Virus record (IMG/VR): IMGVR_UViG_3300046460_000097
Strand: one strand, 5' to 3'
DNA: 64,000 nt
Source: a virus
Taxonomy: Duplodnaviria; Caudoviricetes
Part shown: positions 40,543 to 50,660 of the stretch, one piece after another
Numbering within the stretch: position 1 is the stretch's first letter
Layout of the letters: each line of letters begins with the position of its first letter
Made by a program: the position numbers and the translations under genes
The notes under the pieces: generated by a model
Databases searched by the model: none
Seen by the model: only the letters and a program-made list of their open reading frames with translations
Told to the model about the DNA's origin: nothing

Positions 40543-42198
40543 ATGCAGCGATTCATGAAAATTACCGATACCCAAGACATGGTAGAAGACGTTATGATGG
40601 ACGTCGCCAAGGCTGTGGTATCCACCATGGGTCCTAATGGCAGGCTGGCACTCATCTCCGTCGGTACCAACAAGAAAGTAACCAAAGATGGTGTAACGGT
40701 TGCTCGGTCTATCAAGTTCGAAGACCCCTTCAAAGAACTGATCAACAAAGTCATCACTGAACCAGCGGTCAAGACTGACGTTGAATGTGGTGATGGTACT
40801 ACCACTACCATCCTGCTGACGGCTGAGCTGTATAGCCTGTTCAGTCAGTTCCCGGGTTACCGTGAGCAGAAGTTCATCGAGCGTCTGGGTGGTCTTCTGA
40901 TCGACGAGCTGCAGCGTATGGCTCGTGTTGTAACGGTCGGTAGCCCAGAGCTGTACCAGATGGCCCTCACGTCCTCTAACGGCGACGTAGAGCTATCCAA
41001 GGTCATCACTGACATCTATGCTCAAGCGAATGGCAAGTTCCCTGAGATCGAACTCAAGGAAGGTGTGACTCGTGCTGACAAGGTTGTACACAGTGACGGC
41101 CTGCCGGTCAAGATGGAATTCTCCAATCCATCGTTCAGCGCAACTGGTAACGGTGCCGATACTGACTTCGAACGTTATGTTCCGTTGGTAATCGACGACA
41201 ACCTGCGTTCCATGCAGCCAGATCAGGCGGTGGAGTTCTTCCGTAAGCTGTTCGACAAGTACAACTTCGGCAAGGACATTGAAGGTGTGGTCATTCCTGT
41301 ACTGCTGATTGCTCGTTCGATCGACAACAGTCTGAACAGTCTGATCATGCAGATCAACAACGTTTCGCCGAAGGTGAAGTTCATCGGCGTTCAAACCAAC
41401 TTCGGCGGTTCGGTTGGTACGTTGCTGATGCAGGACATCGCCATCATGTTGGGTGTTCCGTTCTTCAAGACGCTGGCAGATACACTGCACCAAGATGTTA
41501 AGGCGTGCACTGTTCCTCTGACTGTAGGCTCTCGTCGTTCGGTGATCCGTCCGAATGATCCGGTAACCAAGACACGTATCACTGATCGTGCCAAGGAAAT
41601 CGAAACCGAGCTGGGTACTTATGAAGCGGGCGATCGTTTCAGTATGCGTGCGAAGTTCAACGAACAACGTATGCGTAGTCTGCTTGGCGAACTGGTCACT
41701 GTGTTTGTTGGCGGTGAAACTCAGTCGGAAGTGAAAGAACGTCTGGACCGTTTCGAAGACGTGGGCAAGGCAGTTAAGTCGGCGTTGATTAACGGCATCC
41801 TGCCAGGCGTCGGTTCTGCAATGATTACTGCCGGTCAGTTCGTCTTCGGCGCACTGGATGAGCAGGAGCTGTTGGACTACCCTCCATTTCAGAAGATCGT
41901 TGACGTTATGGAGAAGATCACTTTCGCTCAATTCTTCTTGTTGATGAAGGGGATTGTTTCGGAAGACCAGATGCTCAACATCAAAGCAAATGTCATCGAC
42001 ATGGACTGCCCAGAGCCGATCCGTGTGCTGAACTTGGCAACTGGTGAATGGGGTACTCCGGCGGCGCTGGGTATCTACGATACTGCTTATGCGTCGATCA
42101 CTGCGCTGAAGGGTGGTCTGCAAACGGCCAAGATCTTGGCTAACTTGGATAGTGTTCTGCTTGGCGATAAATCGTCCGCAGTACAAATCCAGGACTAA
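40543..42198 (+). CDS. groEL: Phage-encoded GroEL-like chaperonin
   Basis: TMGPNGR, TKDGVTVA, GDGTTT, catalytic-Asp block RLDRFED, GILPGVG; no GGM tail. Confidence 0.92.
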   Translation: MQRFMKITDTQDMVEDVMMDVAKAVVSTMGPNGRLALISVGTNKKVTKDGVTVARSIKFEDPFKELINKVITEPAVKTDVECGDGTTTTILLTAELYSLFSQFPGYREQKFIERLGGLLIDELQRMARVVTVGSPELYQMALTSSNGDVELSKVITDIYAQANGKFPEIELKEGVTRADKVVHSDGLPVKMEFSNPSFSATGNGADTDFERYVPLVIDDNLRSMQPDQAVEFFRKLFDKYNFGKDIEGVVIPVLLIARSIDNSLNSLIMQINNVSPKVKFIGVQTNFGGSVGTLLMQDIAIMLGVPFFKTLADTLHQDVKACTVPLTVGSRRSVIRPNDPVTKTRITDRAKEIETELGTYEAGDRFSMRAKFNEQRMRSLLGELVTVFVGGETQSEVKERLDRFEDVGKAVKSALINGILPGVGSAMITAGQFVFGALDEQELLDYPPFQKIVDVMEKITFAQFFLLMKGIVSEDQMLNIKANVIDMDCPEPIRVLNLATGEWGTPAALGIYDTAYASITALKGGLQTAKILANLDSVLLGDKSSAVQIQD

Positions 42199-43259: not shown

Positions 43260-43820
43260 ATGACCGTACAAATAAAAGCAGATTTCACTACCGCGGTTGA
43301 GGTAGAGGACGAGTTCGCGTCGACTATGCGTGCTCTGGATCCAAAGTTCGCAGCATTGTTCTTAGATAAGAAAGTCGCCAAAAATACGCTGCGTGAACTG
43401 GTGTACTGCGTTGACCATCTGTACGAACTGATGGAGATCAAAGGCTGTCCGGTAAGTACGACTCTGATGAGCCCCGACACCGAGACATTCAAGATCGAAG
43501 CCTTCTTCCTGTTTAATGAATTGTTCCGCATGACGAACAACCATTCCTGGAAGATGTCTGTGGTCAACAACGAAGTAAAGGCATCTCTGCGCGATTTCTT
43601 TGCACAGGGTTACCTGACTACCATTGGGTTCTTAATGGACACACTGGGGGTGGATGAGTTCGAGTTCACGATCGACAGACGGCTGTGCTCGTTGGTACTT
43701 AACGAGATTGTCCCCGATTCGAAACTCAACGTCTTGGAGTTCTACGACTTCGAGGAAAAGATAGGGCTCAAGATTCCGTTTGCAAGGAGCCGCGCCGGTC
43801 ACTCTTTAAAGGTGAAATGA
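43260..43820 (+). CDS. Hypothetical protein, paralog of 44090..44644
   Basis: LRELVYCVDHLYE versus LQEFVYAIDVLVE; DFF..GY versus EFF..NY. Confidence 0.7.
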   Translation: MTVQIKADFTTAVEVEDEFASTMRALDPKFAALFLDKKVAKNTLRELVYCVDHLYELMEIKGCPVSTTLMSPDTETFKIEAFFLFNELFRMTNNHSWKMSVVNNEVKASLRDFFAQGYLTTIGFLMDTLGVDEFEFTIDRRLCSLVLNEIVPDSKLNVLEFYDFEEKIGLKIPFARSRAGHSLKVK

Positions 43821-44024: not shown

Positions 44025-44089
44025 CTAGGGGTAGCAAAGACGCTCGTTTAATTGTGGTATTTTCCACGTTAGGTAAAAAGGGATCGAAT

Positions 44090-44644
44090 ATGTTAGAAGC
44101 ACTGAGAAGGACGGAGGATCACGATGGACTGATAACTAATAATACCGAGAGCAAAAGACTTAAGTATTTCAAGTACGTAATGAACGACGAGTTTGTGAAT
44201 GCTTTCATGGCTTCCATGGGTGACATCCACAAACTGCAAGAGTTCGTCTACGCTATCGATGTCTTGGTAGAAATTAGCAGAAGTCGTGACTTCCCTTCAG
44301 GCCGTTTGCTGAACAACGTCGACATCACTCAGAAGGCAGCATTCACACTCGGACAGCTGGCCCGGTGGACACGCGACAAATCGTTGTTCGGTTGCCAAGT
44401 AACACCCGACACAGCCGAACTCGTCGACGAATTTTTCAGTTATAACTATCCCGAGTTATTCGGTGAGTTTTTCAACAAGACCAAGTTCCCGTTTGCAGCA
44501 TTTACATTAGACGGAGTTTGGTACCAGTTGATGATCGTCAGAGAGTTCTCCGCCCTGCGCGAGTACGCAGCAGTGAAACTCATAAGCAGTCAGTCAGATA
44601 TCGCCGTCTACATTCCGTTCCTTAAATCCCGGCTAGGGCTTTGA
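44090..44644 (+). CDS. Hypothetical protein, paralog of 43260..43820
   Basis: ATG 44090 after AAGGGA. Confidence 0.7.
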   Translation: MLEALRRTEDHDGLITNNTESKRLKYFKYVMNDEFVNAFMASMGDIHKLQEFVYAIDVLVEISRSRDFPSGRLLNNVDITQKAAFTLGQLARWTRDKSLFGCQVTPDTAELVDEFFSYNYPELFGEFFNKTKFPFAAFTLDGVWYQLMIVREFSALREYAAVKLISSQSDIAVYIPFLKSRLGL

Positions 44645-44747: not shown

Positions 44748-45686
44748 ATGACAATCCAAGAACAGGCGCCACAGGTTATCACCGAAGAGGAAATGCTTAA
44801 GCTTGCTCCGAATGCCAGTAAAGAGACAGTTAATCTTGCCTCAAACGGAGATGCTTACGTCTGGCATGAAGGCAAGGAGGGTTACCAAAACCTTGGGCAC
44901 GTTTCTACCTTGAGACCAACTATTAGCGACGGGGCTCATACCAACGAGATTCCGGTCTCTGACGTTTTGCCTGAAGCATCGTACCATTCAACACCTGCTC
45001 ATATTCCTTCTGCGGAAGAGCAGCGTGAGGCAAAGATCGTTAACAAAGCACATCCTTCACTGGATGATGTGTCTACATTGCTGGAAGGGGCCTTGCAGAA
45101 GCTTGAGGGCGAAGAAAGTGATGCTGCTTTCAAAGCACTCGATGCCTTGAAGAAGGTAAGGGTTGATCTGCGTCGTAAGCGTCGTAATACCTGGCTGCGT
45201 TGGTTGCTCTTCTGGGCGATCGTGGGTGGTGTGGTTTACGGTCTGTATAAGTGGATACCTACTCAGGTGGTGTCCGGTCGTTATACCGTACCAAAGGTAT
45301 GTTCCGCTCCTTTCGGTCCCGGGTTGATTCAAGGTATGCGCTACTACAACTATACCTACAAATCGTTGTTCGGCGTTCACTTTACTCTGGAAAGCACTGT
45401 ACGGGAAGAGACCGACGTCACCAAGAACGGGCAGGAGTTCACTATCTTTGGCTTGTCTCCTCGTAATGAGGCTGCAACCGAGGAAGAGATGGCGCTGGCT
45501 GACAAGGTATTGAAAGCTGCCGAGGTAGAAGTGGAAGGTGTTCCTAAACCACCTAAAGGTAAATGGTGGCGTATAAACGTTTGGTCGAGTGACAAAGGTA
45601 CTCAGTGGATGAAACCAGCCGAGCTGTATTTGTTCGCGTCTGAGAAGTACACCACGTTGGTTGCGTACAAAGACTTCTGCAAATGA
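44748..45686 (+). CDS. Single-pass membrane protein (312 aa)
   Basis: AAGGAG RBS; basic RRKRR then WLRWLLFWAIVGGVVYGLY. Confidence 0.75.
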   Translation: MTIQEQAPQVITEEEMLKLAPNASKETVNLASNGDAYVWHEGKEGYQNLGHVSTLRPTISDGAHTNEIPVSDVLPEASYHSTPAHIPSAEEQREAKIVNKAHPSLDDVSTLLEGALQKLEGEESDAAFKALDALKKVRVDLRRKRRNTWLRWLLFWAIVGGVVYGLYKWIPTQVVSGRYTVPKVCSAPFGPGLIQGMRYYNYTYKSLFGVHFTLESTVREETDVTKNGQEFTIFGLSPRNEAATEEEMALADKVLKAAEVEVEGVPKPPKGKWWRINVWSSDKGTQWMKPAELYLFASEKYTTLVAYKDFCK

Positions 45687-45766
45687 AGGGCATCCAACTT
45701 TACGATGGTAAAAATGTCCGTATGCTGGCGTATACGGGACGGGTTAATTACAAAGAGGCTTATGAG

Positions 45767-46204
45767 ATGAACAATCGTTATCCTAACGTCGGTACGATCG
45801 GTCATGTTGATCACAGTCGTCACACGTATTCGATTCTGCCGGAACTGGTGGACTGGAACAACGGGCTGGTTCGTGTGGGTGGTCGTATCATTCATGATCT
45901 CCGTGTTAAGGAAGAAGTTCAGCCTGAACACATGATCATCAACCCACGCACAGTTTCTGTGATGAACGAGCTCTATATGCAGTCGGCCCACACCGATATC
46001 GGCAAGAGTGTGTTCTTCCAAGACCAACGGTTGCTGGAAGATCGTCGTTCGGTGATTCCTACCAAGCAACAGATCGCCATCGACATCATCTACAACCGTC
46101 GCCTGAAACAAATGCAGGCAATGCGTAACGCGGTCGTTGTGAAGTACGACGAAGAACAAATCCAGGAGCTGTTGAATGGACAAGGTATTAAAGACGGTAC
46201 GTAG
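45767..46204 (+). CDS. Hypothetical protein with an N-terminal EF-Tu-like peptide
   Basis: AAGAGG RBS 8 nt before ATG 45767 (alternative start 45683); contains NVGTIGHVDH. Confidence 0.7.
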   Translation: MNNRYPNVGTIGHVDHSRHTYSILPELVDWNNGLVRVGGRIIHDLRVKEEVQPEHMIINPRTVSVMNELYMQSAHTDIGKSVFFQDQRLLEDRRSVIPTKQQIAIDIIYNRRLKQMQAMRNAVVVKYDEEQIQELLNGQGIKDGT

Positions 46205-46703
46205 TCGACTGCTTACAACGGGCCAACTATTCCACATCAGTTTCAACGGGGCTCTAGCGGGCCTGTGGACACCGGGTACTCAAGCAGGCTTCGATGTACC
46301 GGGTGAACACGAGGACAGCTCCTGGGCTTATCCAGAGCCTCCTATGGCTGCAATTGCGGTAGCGCCTAAGGTGGAAGACTGTTTCCGTGGTGTCTTCCCC
46401 AATGTGGCGAAGTTCTTTGAGGTCGAGAAATATCCTCATATGAACTTCTACGTTTATCGTCCTGTGTTCGAGGGTGATGAACGAGTGGTTACCCCACAAG
46501 TCCTTACTAAGGATCGGTGGGTTTGGGACGCTCATGTTACTCATGAGCATCGCATCATTGATCCCGTGGAGATGGAACTGGTGGGCGAGGTAGAGATTAT
46601 GAACTGTAACTCCTCACCTACCATGCAAACTCATCCCTACGGATACATTGGTTATCCAAAGGAGTCTGTTGGTCCTACGACCATCAAGTACCGTTGGCTT
46701 TAG
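46176..46703 (+). CDS. Hypothetical protein, possible ADP-ribosyltransferase-like fold
   Basis: AGGAG RBS; LFHIS...E...IAVAP.VEDC...YVY...VWDAHVTHE pattern. The confidence value is for the gene; the fold call is weak. Confidence 0.55.
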   Translation: MDKVLKTVRSRLLTTGQLFHISFNGALAGLWTPGTQAGFDVPGEHEDSSWAYPEPPMAAIAVAPKVEDCFRGVFPNVAKFFEVEKYPHMNFYVYRPVFEGDERVVTPQVLTKDRWVWDAHVTHEHRIIDPVEMELVGEVEIMNCNSSPTMQTHPYGYIGYPKESVGPTTIKYRWL

Positions 46704-47510: not shown

Positions 47511-48101
47511 ATGATCTCCAAAGGCATTTGCTTTGATATGGATAGCTTCCCAATGCACACCGCAGGGGAAAGGCAGTTCCGGGTATCAGCTCAAACGGGT
47601 GAACTCTTTAAGGGCAGGATTCCATTTGCCCGCTTTGGTCATCCGGCACCGTTGATTCGTCATGGGCTTAACCACCCTATCGAGTTCTACTGTGTAACTC
47701 TATCGGAACCTGGGATCCTGATAGCACTAAGTGATGACCGGCAAACACGGTATTATTGGATCACTCCAAGCGGTCGTCGTTATCCCTACGTTGTAGATTC
47801 GCCCTCGCACAGCTTTGAACAGGCGTGGGATAGTTTGTTTGTGAATCTCCTGCTGGATGATCGGCAATATGCGATTGGGTTGTACAATCGTATTAGTCAC
47901 ATTTTCATCGAGTACATCAAGGAGAAAGAGAAACCCGTACAAGTGGCTGTTGACGGTCACTGGAATCGTGAGCGTGTTATGGCCGTACTGGAGTGGGATG
48001 AAAGCATGGGGGATCGTGCTGTACAAGTCACCCTGTCTGATCGTGCTCCAGTTCAAGTTCCCTTGGCAGATCACCCTTTGGCTGCCTTGCTTCGCAAATA
48101 A
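47511..48101 (+). CDS. Hypothetical protein (196 aa)
   Basis: Operonic; AGG upstream. Confidence 0.7.
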   Translation: MISKGICFDMDSFPMHTAGERQFRVSAQTGELFKGRIPFARFGHPAPLIRHGLNHPIEFYCVTLSEPGILIALSDDRQTRYYWITPSGRRYPYVVDSPSHSFEQAWDSLFVNLLLDDRQYAIGLYNRISHIFIEYIKEKEKPVQVAVDGHWNRERVMAVLEWDESMGDRAVQVTLSDRAPVQVPLADHPLAALLRK

Positions 48102-48127: not shown

Positions 48128-48679
48128 ATGAACAATCAATACGCCAACTTCCCTGTTTCCGCTGCTCGCCAAGAAATGTTTGCAGCTCAGTTCGAACAGA
48201 GTAAAAAGGCATTGGCCGCCGCTAGTAATTACTTCGGTGGGCTTACCGGTCGCAAGATGATGATGTCTGGCTGGGAATACGAGCTGCCTAGCGGTCTGCA
48301 GTTGCGCGTTAACCGTCTCCGTGGTCATACCTCCTTTATTGTATCTGAGGGCGGTGGCGGTACCATGTACCTCGTTAACGGCGAGTTCCACTCGTACGAA
48401 GAGGCGGTGTTGGGTCTGTTCAAGAAGCTGATGATTGACGACCGTGAACACGCTGTTAATTACTACGGTCTAGTAAAAGATTTCTTCATCTCCTATTTTA
48501 AGAAGGTGGAGAATAATTCCCTGTCCATGACCCTCACCGGAAAATGGAAGGGGCAGTTTGTACATCTGGATCTCGAAACCGTAACGGGCATGGGCGGGTC
48601 TCTTATCTCCATGCAAGTCGGCGGCAAGGAATTGATGGTGTCTCTCCACACTCACCCGTTGGTAGACCACCTGGGCTAA
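48128..48679 (+). CDS. Hypothetical protein (183 aa)
   Basis: GAGGA RBS. Confidence 0.75.
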   Translation: MNNQYANFPVSAARQEMFAAQFEQSKKALAAASNYFGGLTGRKMMMSGWEYELPSGLQLRVNRLRGHTSFIVSEGGGGTMYLVNGEFHSYEEAVLGLFKKLMIDDREHAVNYYGLVKDFFISYFKKVENNSLSMTLTGKWKGQFVHLDLETVTGMGGSLISMQVGGKELMVSLHTHPLVDHLG

Positions 48680-49757: not shown

Positions 49758-50660
49758 TTATCCGGCGTCAAATACCCACATGTCATTCTGGACGGTGCCG
49801 TTCCAACCACCTGCGACGTAGATCTCGTTAGTCGAAGGTAGAGACGCCATGAAGAGTTCTTGTCGTCCGACACTAGCAAGTGCTAACTGGGTCCATGTTG
49901 CCTCAACTGGGTCGTAGCACCACATCATCCTGCTGTAACCGGCAACAAGTCGACCACCATGAAGGTAGAGTTTCCCATCCAATACAGCCGTCCGGCATCC
50001 AATTAACCCACCAATGGGTTGATCAGGTAACTGAGTCCATGTATCAGTCGCAATGTCATAAACCCAGAAATCCGAAAGATACTGGGCCGTGCTACTGTAA
50101 CCACCGACGAGGTAGAGTTTTCCGTCAATTGCGGCAAGCGTTGTTTTAGTACGACCTGCTCCCGGATAAGGAGACAACGTACTCCATGTATTCGTGGCGA
50201 TGTCGTAGCAACGTAAATCGGCGGCAGCGGTGTTAGTCCAACCACTACTTACATACAACTTACCGTTCCACGATGCCATGGCCCCACTGTAACGTGTGGT
50301 GCCGGCAAGCTTCGACGTCCAAGTATTAGCTGTAGGGTCATAGACCCATAGGTCGCCTATTTGGGCACTAGACGACCTACCAGAGTGCACCCAAATTTTA
50401 CCATCGGCTTCACACATGCATAACTGTGTACGGGCTACCGGCCCAGTGGCTTTAACCGTCCATGACCCGGCGACGGGATCATAATACTTAAAGTCTGCTA
50501 CCGGAGAGTTTACGTTGTTGTTACTACCGCCGAATGCGTAGATCAACCCACCCATCTCGACAAACATGCCGTCCATACGCTGAGCCGACAAGTTGGCTAG
50601 CTTCGTCCATATACCCCGTGGTGCGAGTCCAGCTAGTCCACCTATTAATGCTTCAAGCAT
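49758..50660 (-). CDS. Kelch-repeat beta-propeller protein
   Basis: Six Kelch repeats (GGLIYAFGG, GKIWVHSG, GKLYVSSG, GKLYLVGG, GKLYLHGG, EIYVAGG with YDP..W). Confidence 0.9.
   Translation of the reverse strand: MLEALIGGLAGLAPRGIWTKLANLSAQRMDGMFVEMGGLIYAFGGSNNNVNSPVADFKYYDPVAGSWTVKATGPVARTQLCMCEADGKIWVHSGRSSSAQIGDLWVYDPTANTWTSKLAGTTRYSGAMASWNGKLYVSSGWTNTAAADLRCYDIATNTWSTLSPYPGAGRTKTTLAAIDGKLYLVGGYSSTAQYLSDFWVYDIATDTWTQLPDQPIGGLIGCRTAVLDGKLYLHGGRLVAGYSRMMWCYDPVEATWTQLALASVGRQELFMASLPSTNEIYVAGGWNGTVQNDMWVFDAG

Follow-up and report, generated by a model that had tools for sequence, protein, structure and literature searches.

Few bacterial proteins are as abundant or as conserved as EF-Tu, and the DNA considered here, a 64,000-nucleotide stretch of a viral genome (IMG/VR record IMGVR_UViG_3300046460_000097; hereafter the window), raises the question of why a phage should carry an exact copy of ten of its residues in a small protein that is otherwise unlike it. 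The codons at 45785-45814 (+) read NVGTIGHVDH and the next two (45815-45820) encode Ser-Arg. The same ten residues, followed by Gly-Lys, are found in EF-Tu chains of the PDB (HVNVGTIGHVDHGK) and in tuf genes from metagenomes and viral contigs, so that the exact match noticed in the initial annotation of this locus stands. Over the six frames of the window, and with its own amino-acid frequencies, the chance expectation for this decapeptide is ~7e-9, while any EF-Tu decamer would be expected ~3e-6 times; the match is far above chance, as had been presumed. The descriptive part of the answer can be given with high confidence: the locus very probably encodes a real, clade-specific accessory protein which carries a grafted EF-Tu module, is not a GTPase, and retains the peptide under purifying selection.

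The phage and the gene

The window derives from an uncultured, GroEL-carrying soil jumbo phage that is distantly related to Pseudomonas phage EL. Its genes include those for a GroEL-like chaperonin, an NAD-dependent DNA ligase, an SbcC-like protein, and large virion and tail-fibre proteins. The chaperonin gene (40543-42198, +) encodes a product that shares ~43% identity with EL gp146 and with its counterparts in Erwinia phages RisingSun and Joad. By this marker, the nearest isolates are EL with its relatives and these two Erwinia phages, and given the level of identity the window belongs to an EL-related but distinct jumbo phage. The tail fibre is ~35% identical to those of EL-like phages. Megablast and tblastn searches with the motif-bearing gene against 50,697 phage records returned no match, and no DNA-level match to any isolate was found; near-identical DNA is present in soil and rhizosphere metagenomes from several studies, with no RNA data set among the sequencing runs listed for it.

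The gene, designated P0001, spans 45683..46204 (+, stop codon included), encodes 173 amino acids, and belongs to a jumbo-phage family without annotation. It had initially been proposed that the protein starts with the EF-Tu peptide, from an ATG at 45767. The true start is the ATG at 45683, because it overlaps the stop codon of the upstream gene in an ATGA junction (45683..45686, +) that is kept in 11 related loci; the coding context of this junction, ...AYKDFCK*/M, is retained in 11 of 11 family loci, and the same junction is seen in L012. The overlap suggests that translation of P0001 is coupled to that of the upstream gene. The ATG at 45767 is then Met29. It has an AAGAGG 8 nt upstream (45753..45769, +, for the two elements together) and is preceded by conserved coding sequence; a role as a minor internal start yielding a shorter isoform is possible. 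With the start at 45683, the motif occupies residues 35-44, and the argument that had been built on its N-terminal placement fails for P0001.

The upstream coupled gene (44748..45686, +) encodes a 312-aa protein with one hydrophobic helix, whose C-terminal half is homologous to EL ORF149. In EL, ORF149 is directly followed by the homolog of the window gene at 47511-48101, and thus EL has no EF-Tu-motif gene. On the strength of this absence, P0001 is a clade-specific accessory gene.

Several other genes of the neighbourhood deserve mention. Two sets of adjacent small genes are paralogous, 47511-48101 with 48128-48679 and 43260-43820 with 44054-44644 (all +; BLASTP E 2e-16 and 5e-7), and the genes of the first pair are homologs of the ORF immediately after ORF149 in EL. 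Residues 166-188 of ORF 44054-44644 (+), with the pattern SALRE..V.L...YIP, were considered as a possible match to ribosomal protein S12/S23 and rejected (sub-threshold in Pfam; E 0.009; 16 bits vs a cut-off of 22.3); the similarity is probably due to chance, and a PDB sequence search did not reproduce it. The downstream gene (46176-46703, +; PHROG 10766) overlaps the end of P0001 by 29 nt. Its homologs, 30-38% identical, occur in Klebsiella, Salmonella, Erwinia, and Yersinia jumbo phages, with none at that position in EL, and the homolog in phiR1-37 (g082) is annotated as a structural protein. Further downstream, a Kelch-repeat beta-propeller protein (49758-50660, -; Pfam Kelch_1 E 1e-50) is syntenic with the 'Kelch-like' ORF153 of EL. 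A scan of the window revealed no tRNA gene, and searches with PADLOC and of the ESM Atlas gave nothing usable.

Extent and conservation of the EF-Tu likeness

The whole EF-Tu-like stretch covers residues 24-50 of P0001 (45752..45832, +). When the window is searched by tblastn with full-length EF-Tu, only EF-Tu residues 3-29 align, with 48% identity to this stretch, and the beta-barrel domains II and III are not found. The phage profiles PHROG 12626 and 27465, which stand for small 'EF-Tu-like' proteins of Machinavirus, match the same residues 24-50 only (hmmscan E 3e-4 and 3.6e-3), and no homology was found over the full length of the 109-aa profile. Within the stretch, the decapeptide (residues 35-44; 45785..45814, +) corresponds to strand beta1 together with the front half of the G1/P-loop. 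Directly after it, Ser45-Arg46 (45815..45820, +) takes the place of EF-Tu Gly23-Lys24, and with it the P-loop lysine is gone. A search of 177,635 PDB sequences with the family profile returned EF-Tu matches only, 14-30 residues long and with E-values from 3e-5, and hhalign against an EF-Tu alignment covers 13 columns for a typical family member and 18 for P0001. That the peptide is grafted onto an unrelated protein, as had been suggested, is supported by an EF-Tu homology of only these 13-18 profile columns. The module is thus a 13-18-residue piece taken from the 5' end of a bacterial tuf gene. Besides traces of the N-terminal arm of EF-Tu, it comprises strand beta1 and the P-loop up to its midpoint (HVNVGT[IV]GHVDH).

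Compared with EF-Tu itself, the likeness is confined to tuf residues ~3-23, where NVGTIGHVDH is identical in P0001 and the family consensus reads KHVNVGT[IV]GHVDHG. The match spans 13-27 residues, Gly23-Lys24-Thr25 is replaced (by SR in P0001), and P0001 lacks the switch regions, the G3-G5 motifs, and domains II/III, the remainder of the protein being unrelated. A regular-expression search finds no G1 motif GxxxxGK[ST] in P0001, the sequence at that place being GHVDHSRH, and motif searches find no G3 (DxxG), G4 ([NT]KxD), or G5 (SA[KL]). Pfam yields no match to P0001 at E<=10, GTP_EFTU (PF00009) included, which bears out the earlier remark that the rest of the protein is free of GTPase motifs; in the family, PF00009 gives sub-threshold matches in 7 of 18 members, with a best E-value of 0.12. 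As the module has lost the Gly-Lys-Thr needed for GTP binding, P0001 is, to judge from its sequence, not a GTPase. A split GTPase, in which the module would complement a phage G domain lacking beta1, was also considered and rejected, as no GTP_EFTU domain was found in G001 or in either of two complete genomes of the family.

A word-indexed search with P0001 retrieved only a 99% identical variant, which differs by five synonymous changes and one non-synonymous change. An exhaustive phmmer search followed by a profile search delineated a family of 18 clusters, 159-268 aa long and 28-41% identical to P0001, none of them annotated, with E-values against the profile of 1e-39 to 1e-82. Two further candidates, P0006 and P0010, are long repetitive proteins and were discarded as artefacts of summed weak repeat matches. 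The members sit on metagenomic contigs of 214-232 kb from phages with a distant relationship to EL. The position of the gene is conserved in the family: the GroEL gene of the phage lies upstream of it, and its start codon shares an ATGA with the stop of the ...AYKDFCK gene; P0001 shows this arrangement, and the same layout is found in L012.

Four conserved blocks characterize the family, and all are present in P0001: HVNVGT[IV]GHVDH, [LM]L[QA]YTG, PE[WL][IV]xWxxGLxxVGGR[IV][IV]H, and DRRx[VI][IV]P[ST]. The second is represented by RMLAYTGRVNY (residues 13-23; 45719..45751, +), delimited by the alignments and by a split of the HMM domains, which precedes the EF-Tu block in P0001 while the corresponding block follows it in most relatives. 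The third, PELVDWNNGLVRVGGRIIH (residues 53-71; 45839..45895, +), is not EF-Tu-like and contains the invariant residues P53, E54, W58, G61, V65, G67, and R68. Low-confidence models predict a small beta-meander there, with strands at 56-72, and no EF-Tu match was found; the idea that this beta-hairpin block is the equivalent of EF-Tu beta2-beta3/G3 found no hhalign support and was dropped. The fourth, DRRSVIPT (residues 120-127; 46040..46063, +), with D120, R121, and P126 invariant, ends one predicted helix (residues 106-124) and just precedes another (residues 128-152), likewise in low-confidence models.

Seven residues of the EF-Tu block (N35, V36, G37, T38, G40, H41, and D43) do not vary across the 18 members, and V39 and H44 are almost constant. 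The next two positions are variable (GR in 12, GT in two, and SR, ER, GL, and a deletion in one each), and GK[ST] occurs in none of the 18, so that the missing P-loop lysine first seen in P0001 is a property of the family. Arginine occupies the lysine position in 14 of 18. Among 11 distinct DNA sequences, the motif codons show a pairwise identity of 0.94/1.00/0.55 at positions 1/2/3, with synonymous variation at 10 of 10 codons. Homologs had been suggested as a test of whether the peptide is kept with synonymous divergence, and this is the pattern observed. Because all ten codons vary synonymously, it is the peptide, and not the RNA or DNA, that is under purifying selection.

The place of the module in the protein is less constant. 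It begins at about residue 8, directly after MKSIKHV, in 12 members and at residues 35-63 in the other six; the assumption of a motif close to the N-terminus is therefore correct for two thirds of the family and incorrect for P0001. Relative to the LQYTG block, the EF-Tu block comes first in most members and second in P0001 and P0007; in the P0009 group it is preceded by a long insert. A sequence that is kept while its position changes is more readily understood as a self-contained peptide than as a fixed element of the core. AlphaFold2 models built from the 18-row family alignment have a mean pLDDT of 50 with P0001 as first sequence and 48 with P0014 first; the module is unstructured in both (pLDDT <50), which at such low model confidence is weak evidence.

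The same module on other phage proteins

A tblastn search with residues 20-56 of P0001 retrieved proteins of 109-110 aa from Machinavirus, which are named 'putative elongation factor Tu' or 'putative GTPase' in GenBank and read KHVNVGTIGHVDHSR, with the same Ser-Arg, as well as a 195-aa protein of Vibrio phage Va2 that reads ...HGR. The Machinavirus proteins (Erwinia phage ChrisDB gp215, Salmonella phage pSal-SNUABM-04_195; PHROG 12626) resemble P0001 in the module KHVNVGTIGHVDH with Ser-Arg, in a similar distance of the motif from the N-terminus (residue 37), and in being products of jumbo-phage accessory genes. They differ in that they keep an EF-Tu helix-alpha1-like stretch and possess neither WxxGLxxVGGRIIH nor DRRSVIPT. 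With only 21 columns aligned by hhalign between them and the family, they appear to represent a separate scaffold or a very old split. Their GenBank names are misleading, as these proteins are neither elongation factors nor GTPases. In both phages (L002 1878-4101 in ChrisDB; L003 in pSal-SNUABM-04), the motif gene lies directly after a gene for a GNAT ('ribosomal-protein-alanine') acetyltransferase, and a macrodomain (Appr-1-p processing) gene follows three or four genes later. This neighbourhood is possibly one of host modification or counter-defence.

The Va2 protein, annotated as 'elongation factor Tu', shares the N-terminal decapeptide and the replacement of Lys by Arg (HGR), but retains an EF-Tu switch-I-like EEKERGIT. 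Other short viral fragments of the EF-Tu N-terminus resemble P0001 in having the decapeptide and a broken G1 within small non-GTPase ORFs. Once the motif is masked, however, the scaffolds of Va2 and of these fragments are unrelated to the P0001 family.

A degenerate DNA scan of IMG/VR for the decapeptide returned 88 loci of three kinds. Some are full-length EF-Tu genes of very large phage contigs, others are host tuf sequences located where a contig ends, and the third kind comprises 42 complete ORFs of <300 aa. With the motif masked, the 42 short ORFs form 19 clusters, 12 of which lack GK[ST]; arginine stands at the lysine position in six of these 12. Outside the P0001 family, Arg replaces the lysine in Machinavirus, Va2, L087, L090, and L101. 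The G3 decapeptide VDCPGHADYV, which is equally conserved in EF-Tu, served as a control: each of its 22 viral occurrences lies at the native position within an EF-Tu gene, either genuine or truncated. Because this second peptide is confined to EF-Tu genes, grafting appears to be specific to the N-terminal EF-Tu segment. The full-length EF-Tu-like genes encode 387-430 aa with GKTT intact and an N-terminus reading K[TI]HVNVGTIGH[VI]DHGKTTLTAAILAV, and are located on contigs of 370-620 kb (L045, L047, L062, L080, L085, L095, L103, L104, L106, and others).

A possible origin of such fragments is indicated by neighbouring tRNA genes. In three of the viral loci (L056 577-735, L096 1956-2206, L099 4013-4176), a tRNA gene (Ser, Leu, and Thr-GGT) is immediately followed by a short EF-Tu N-terminal ORF of 87-108 aa in which GKTT is intact. 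The case with tRNA-Thr(GGT) resembles the bacterial thrT-tufB arrangement of E. coli, in which tufB follows a tRNA-Thr gene. These loci look like captured tRNA-tuf junctions, and it is likely that 5' pieces of tuf reach phage genomes in this way; since the GKTT-intact fragments adjoin tRNA genes, part of the N-terminal bias of EF-Tu fragments in phages may stem from capture and not from selection. None of the scanned Lys-less ORFs has a tRNA gene nearby. Such a capture was considered for the P0001 locus and discarded, the window having no tRNA gene.

Possible functions of the module

What the module does can be answered only tentatively. The explanation we favour is that it acts as a mimic or decoy, a proposal built on the sequence comparisons above. 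Presented on a flexible part of the protein, it would be a portable peptide mimic of EF-Tu and would occupy the factor by which this segment, in EF-Tu or in translational GTPases, is normally recognised, so that the activity of that factor would be diverted or blocked during infection. The target could be a host component that acts on EF-Tu, such as an enzyme, sensor, chaperone, or toxin, or else the ribosomal factor-binding site. An arginine where the P-loop has lysine would preserve shape and charge but would allow neither nucleotide binding nor lysine-directed modification. In EF-Tu, Asp21 of the GHVDH loop is specific to translational GTPases, with a suggested role in their activation by the sarcin-ricin loop, and the phosphates are held by Lys24 (PMC5084732). 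Owing to these roles, the ribosomal factor site or a P-loop-directed enzyme are conceivable targets.

Some features sit less well with mimicry, among them the possible capture bias noted above. Nine to ten consecutive residues are near-invariant, hydrophobic ones too, which is stricter than is typical of linear motifs. Moreover, folded EF-Tu has strand beta1 buried in the middle of its G-domain sheet, and therefore a mimic could imitate only unfolded or nascent EF-Tu or the exposed half of the P-loop. A complex prediction of P0001 with Pseudomonas aeruginosa EF-Ts, run with no controls, returned no answer (score 0.00) and speaks neither for nor against binding.

As regards precedents, few phage-related activities that target EF-Tu are known to us, namely Lit and Doc. 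Lit acts on EF-Tu at Gly59-Ile60 and Doc at Thr382, both outside the copied segment, a point that weighs against the mimic reading. The Gol peptide of phage T4, through its connection with the Lit protease, is likewise a short phage peptide whose meaning is tied to host EF-Tu; the analogy is functional only, because Gol binds EF-Tu and does not copy it, and the Lit cleavage site at Gly59-Ile60 is not part of the module. Viral mimicry of host short linear motifs, or decoy peptides, offers a general principle, again as a functional analogy only. A literature search on the peptide and on phage EF-Tu mimics returned only plant elf18/EFR and unrelated papers, and no description of the module in phages was found in the searchable literature.

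The foremost alternative, which we regard as unlikely though worth serious attention, is that the module is an intrinsic ligand-binding element, kept for its chemistry and without reference to partners of EF-Tu. It could be a minimal P-loop-like nest, with Arg for Lys, whose ligand would be phosphate, a nucleotide, an alarmone, or nucleic acid; or its His-x-Asp-His could form a metal site which, together with the invariant E54, H71, and D120 and R121, makes up an active centre. The frequency of Gly-Arg after the block (12 of 18) and of arginine at the lysine position (14 of 18, and again in Machinavirus, Va2, L087, L090, and L101) speaks for such a role, as do hydrophobic strand residues that are as invariant as the polar ones, which is expected of a folded element, and other invariant polar residues of the family that could complete a site. 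However, the helix that completes the P-loop anion hole in EF-Tu (GKTTLTAAI) is absent in the family, and none is predicted at that place. In several members or on other scaffolds the block is followed by GL, GT, GI, GV, GE, GP, SI, or PF, and its order with respect to the remaining conserved blocks changes. In addition, an exact 13-residue EF-Tu sequence would not be needed to bind phosphate or metal in a generic way.

A further reading, improbable in our view, has EF-Tu itself as the target: in the nascent or partly unfolded factor, the module would pair with the strand identical to it or take the place of that strand, and would thereby poison or tune EF-Tu through co-folding or co-aggregation. 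Such an action would account for the near-perfect identity over a hydrophobic beta-strand, which exceeds the usual strictness of linear motifs, for I/V and V/I variation that mirrors the natural variation of EF-Tu, and for the consistent removal of the lysine needed for activity. To judge from two complete genomes, though, the phages of the family have no EF-Tu of their own and so depend on the host factor, and literature searches found no paper on the subject and no experimental precedent in phages.

A neutral relic, that is, a functionless tuf 5' fragment picked up with or beside host tRNA genes, is very improbable. The GKTT-intact fragments directly downstream of tRNA genes in L056, L096, and L099 do provide a capture route, but the peptide is near-invariant over 18 clusters that are 28-41% identical elsewhere while its synonymous sites are saturated, and the window is devoid of tRNA genes. 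Finally, a divergent working GTPase or EF-Tu homolog, as implied by the GenBank names of the Machinavirus proteins and by the EF-Tu-specific profile match, has a negligible probability, given that GK[ST], DxxG, NKxD, and SAK are all absent, that Pfam GTP_EFTU stays below threshold in all members (best E-value 0.12), and that homology is confined to 13-18 columns.

The mimic or decoy reading could be taken further. In its broadest form, which is speculative and on balance quite unlikely, the peptide would be a portable anti-host module recruited independently onto at least a dozen scaffolds, serving as a pseudosubstrate or decoy, with Lys24 replaced, for a bacterial activity that recognises this segment. 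The decoyed activity might belong to an immune sensor, to a toxin, or to an enzyme that modifies lysine; the sarcin-ricin/factor-binding site of the ribosome is another candidate.

The module would extend the known kind of host-derived peptides that phages have co-opted. A single, precise segment of EF-Tu, in contrast to a second one of equal conservation, appears to have been grafted repeatedly onto unrelated small phage proteins, with loss of the GTP-binding lysine and near-invariance thereafter, and this pattern points to an interaction that involves the EF-Tu N-terminal strand and the P-loop. Being short, sharply defined, and present in cultivable Erwinia and Salmonella jumbo phages, the module is experimentally tractable. 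If the decoy proposal is true, the partner of the module would reveal a new EF-Tu-centred layer of the conflict between phages and their hosts.
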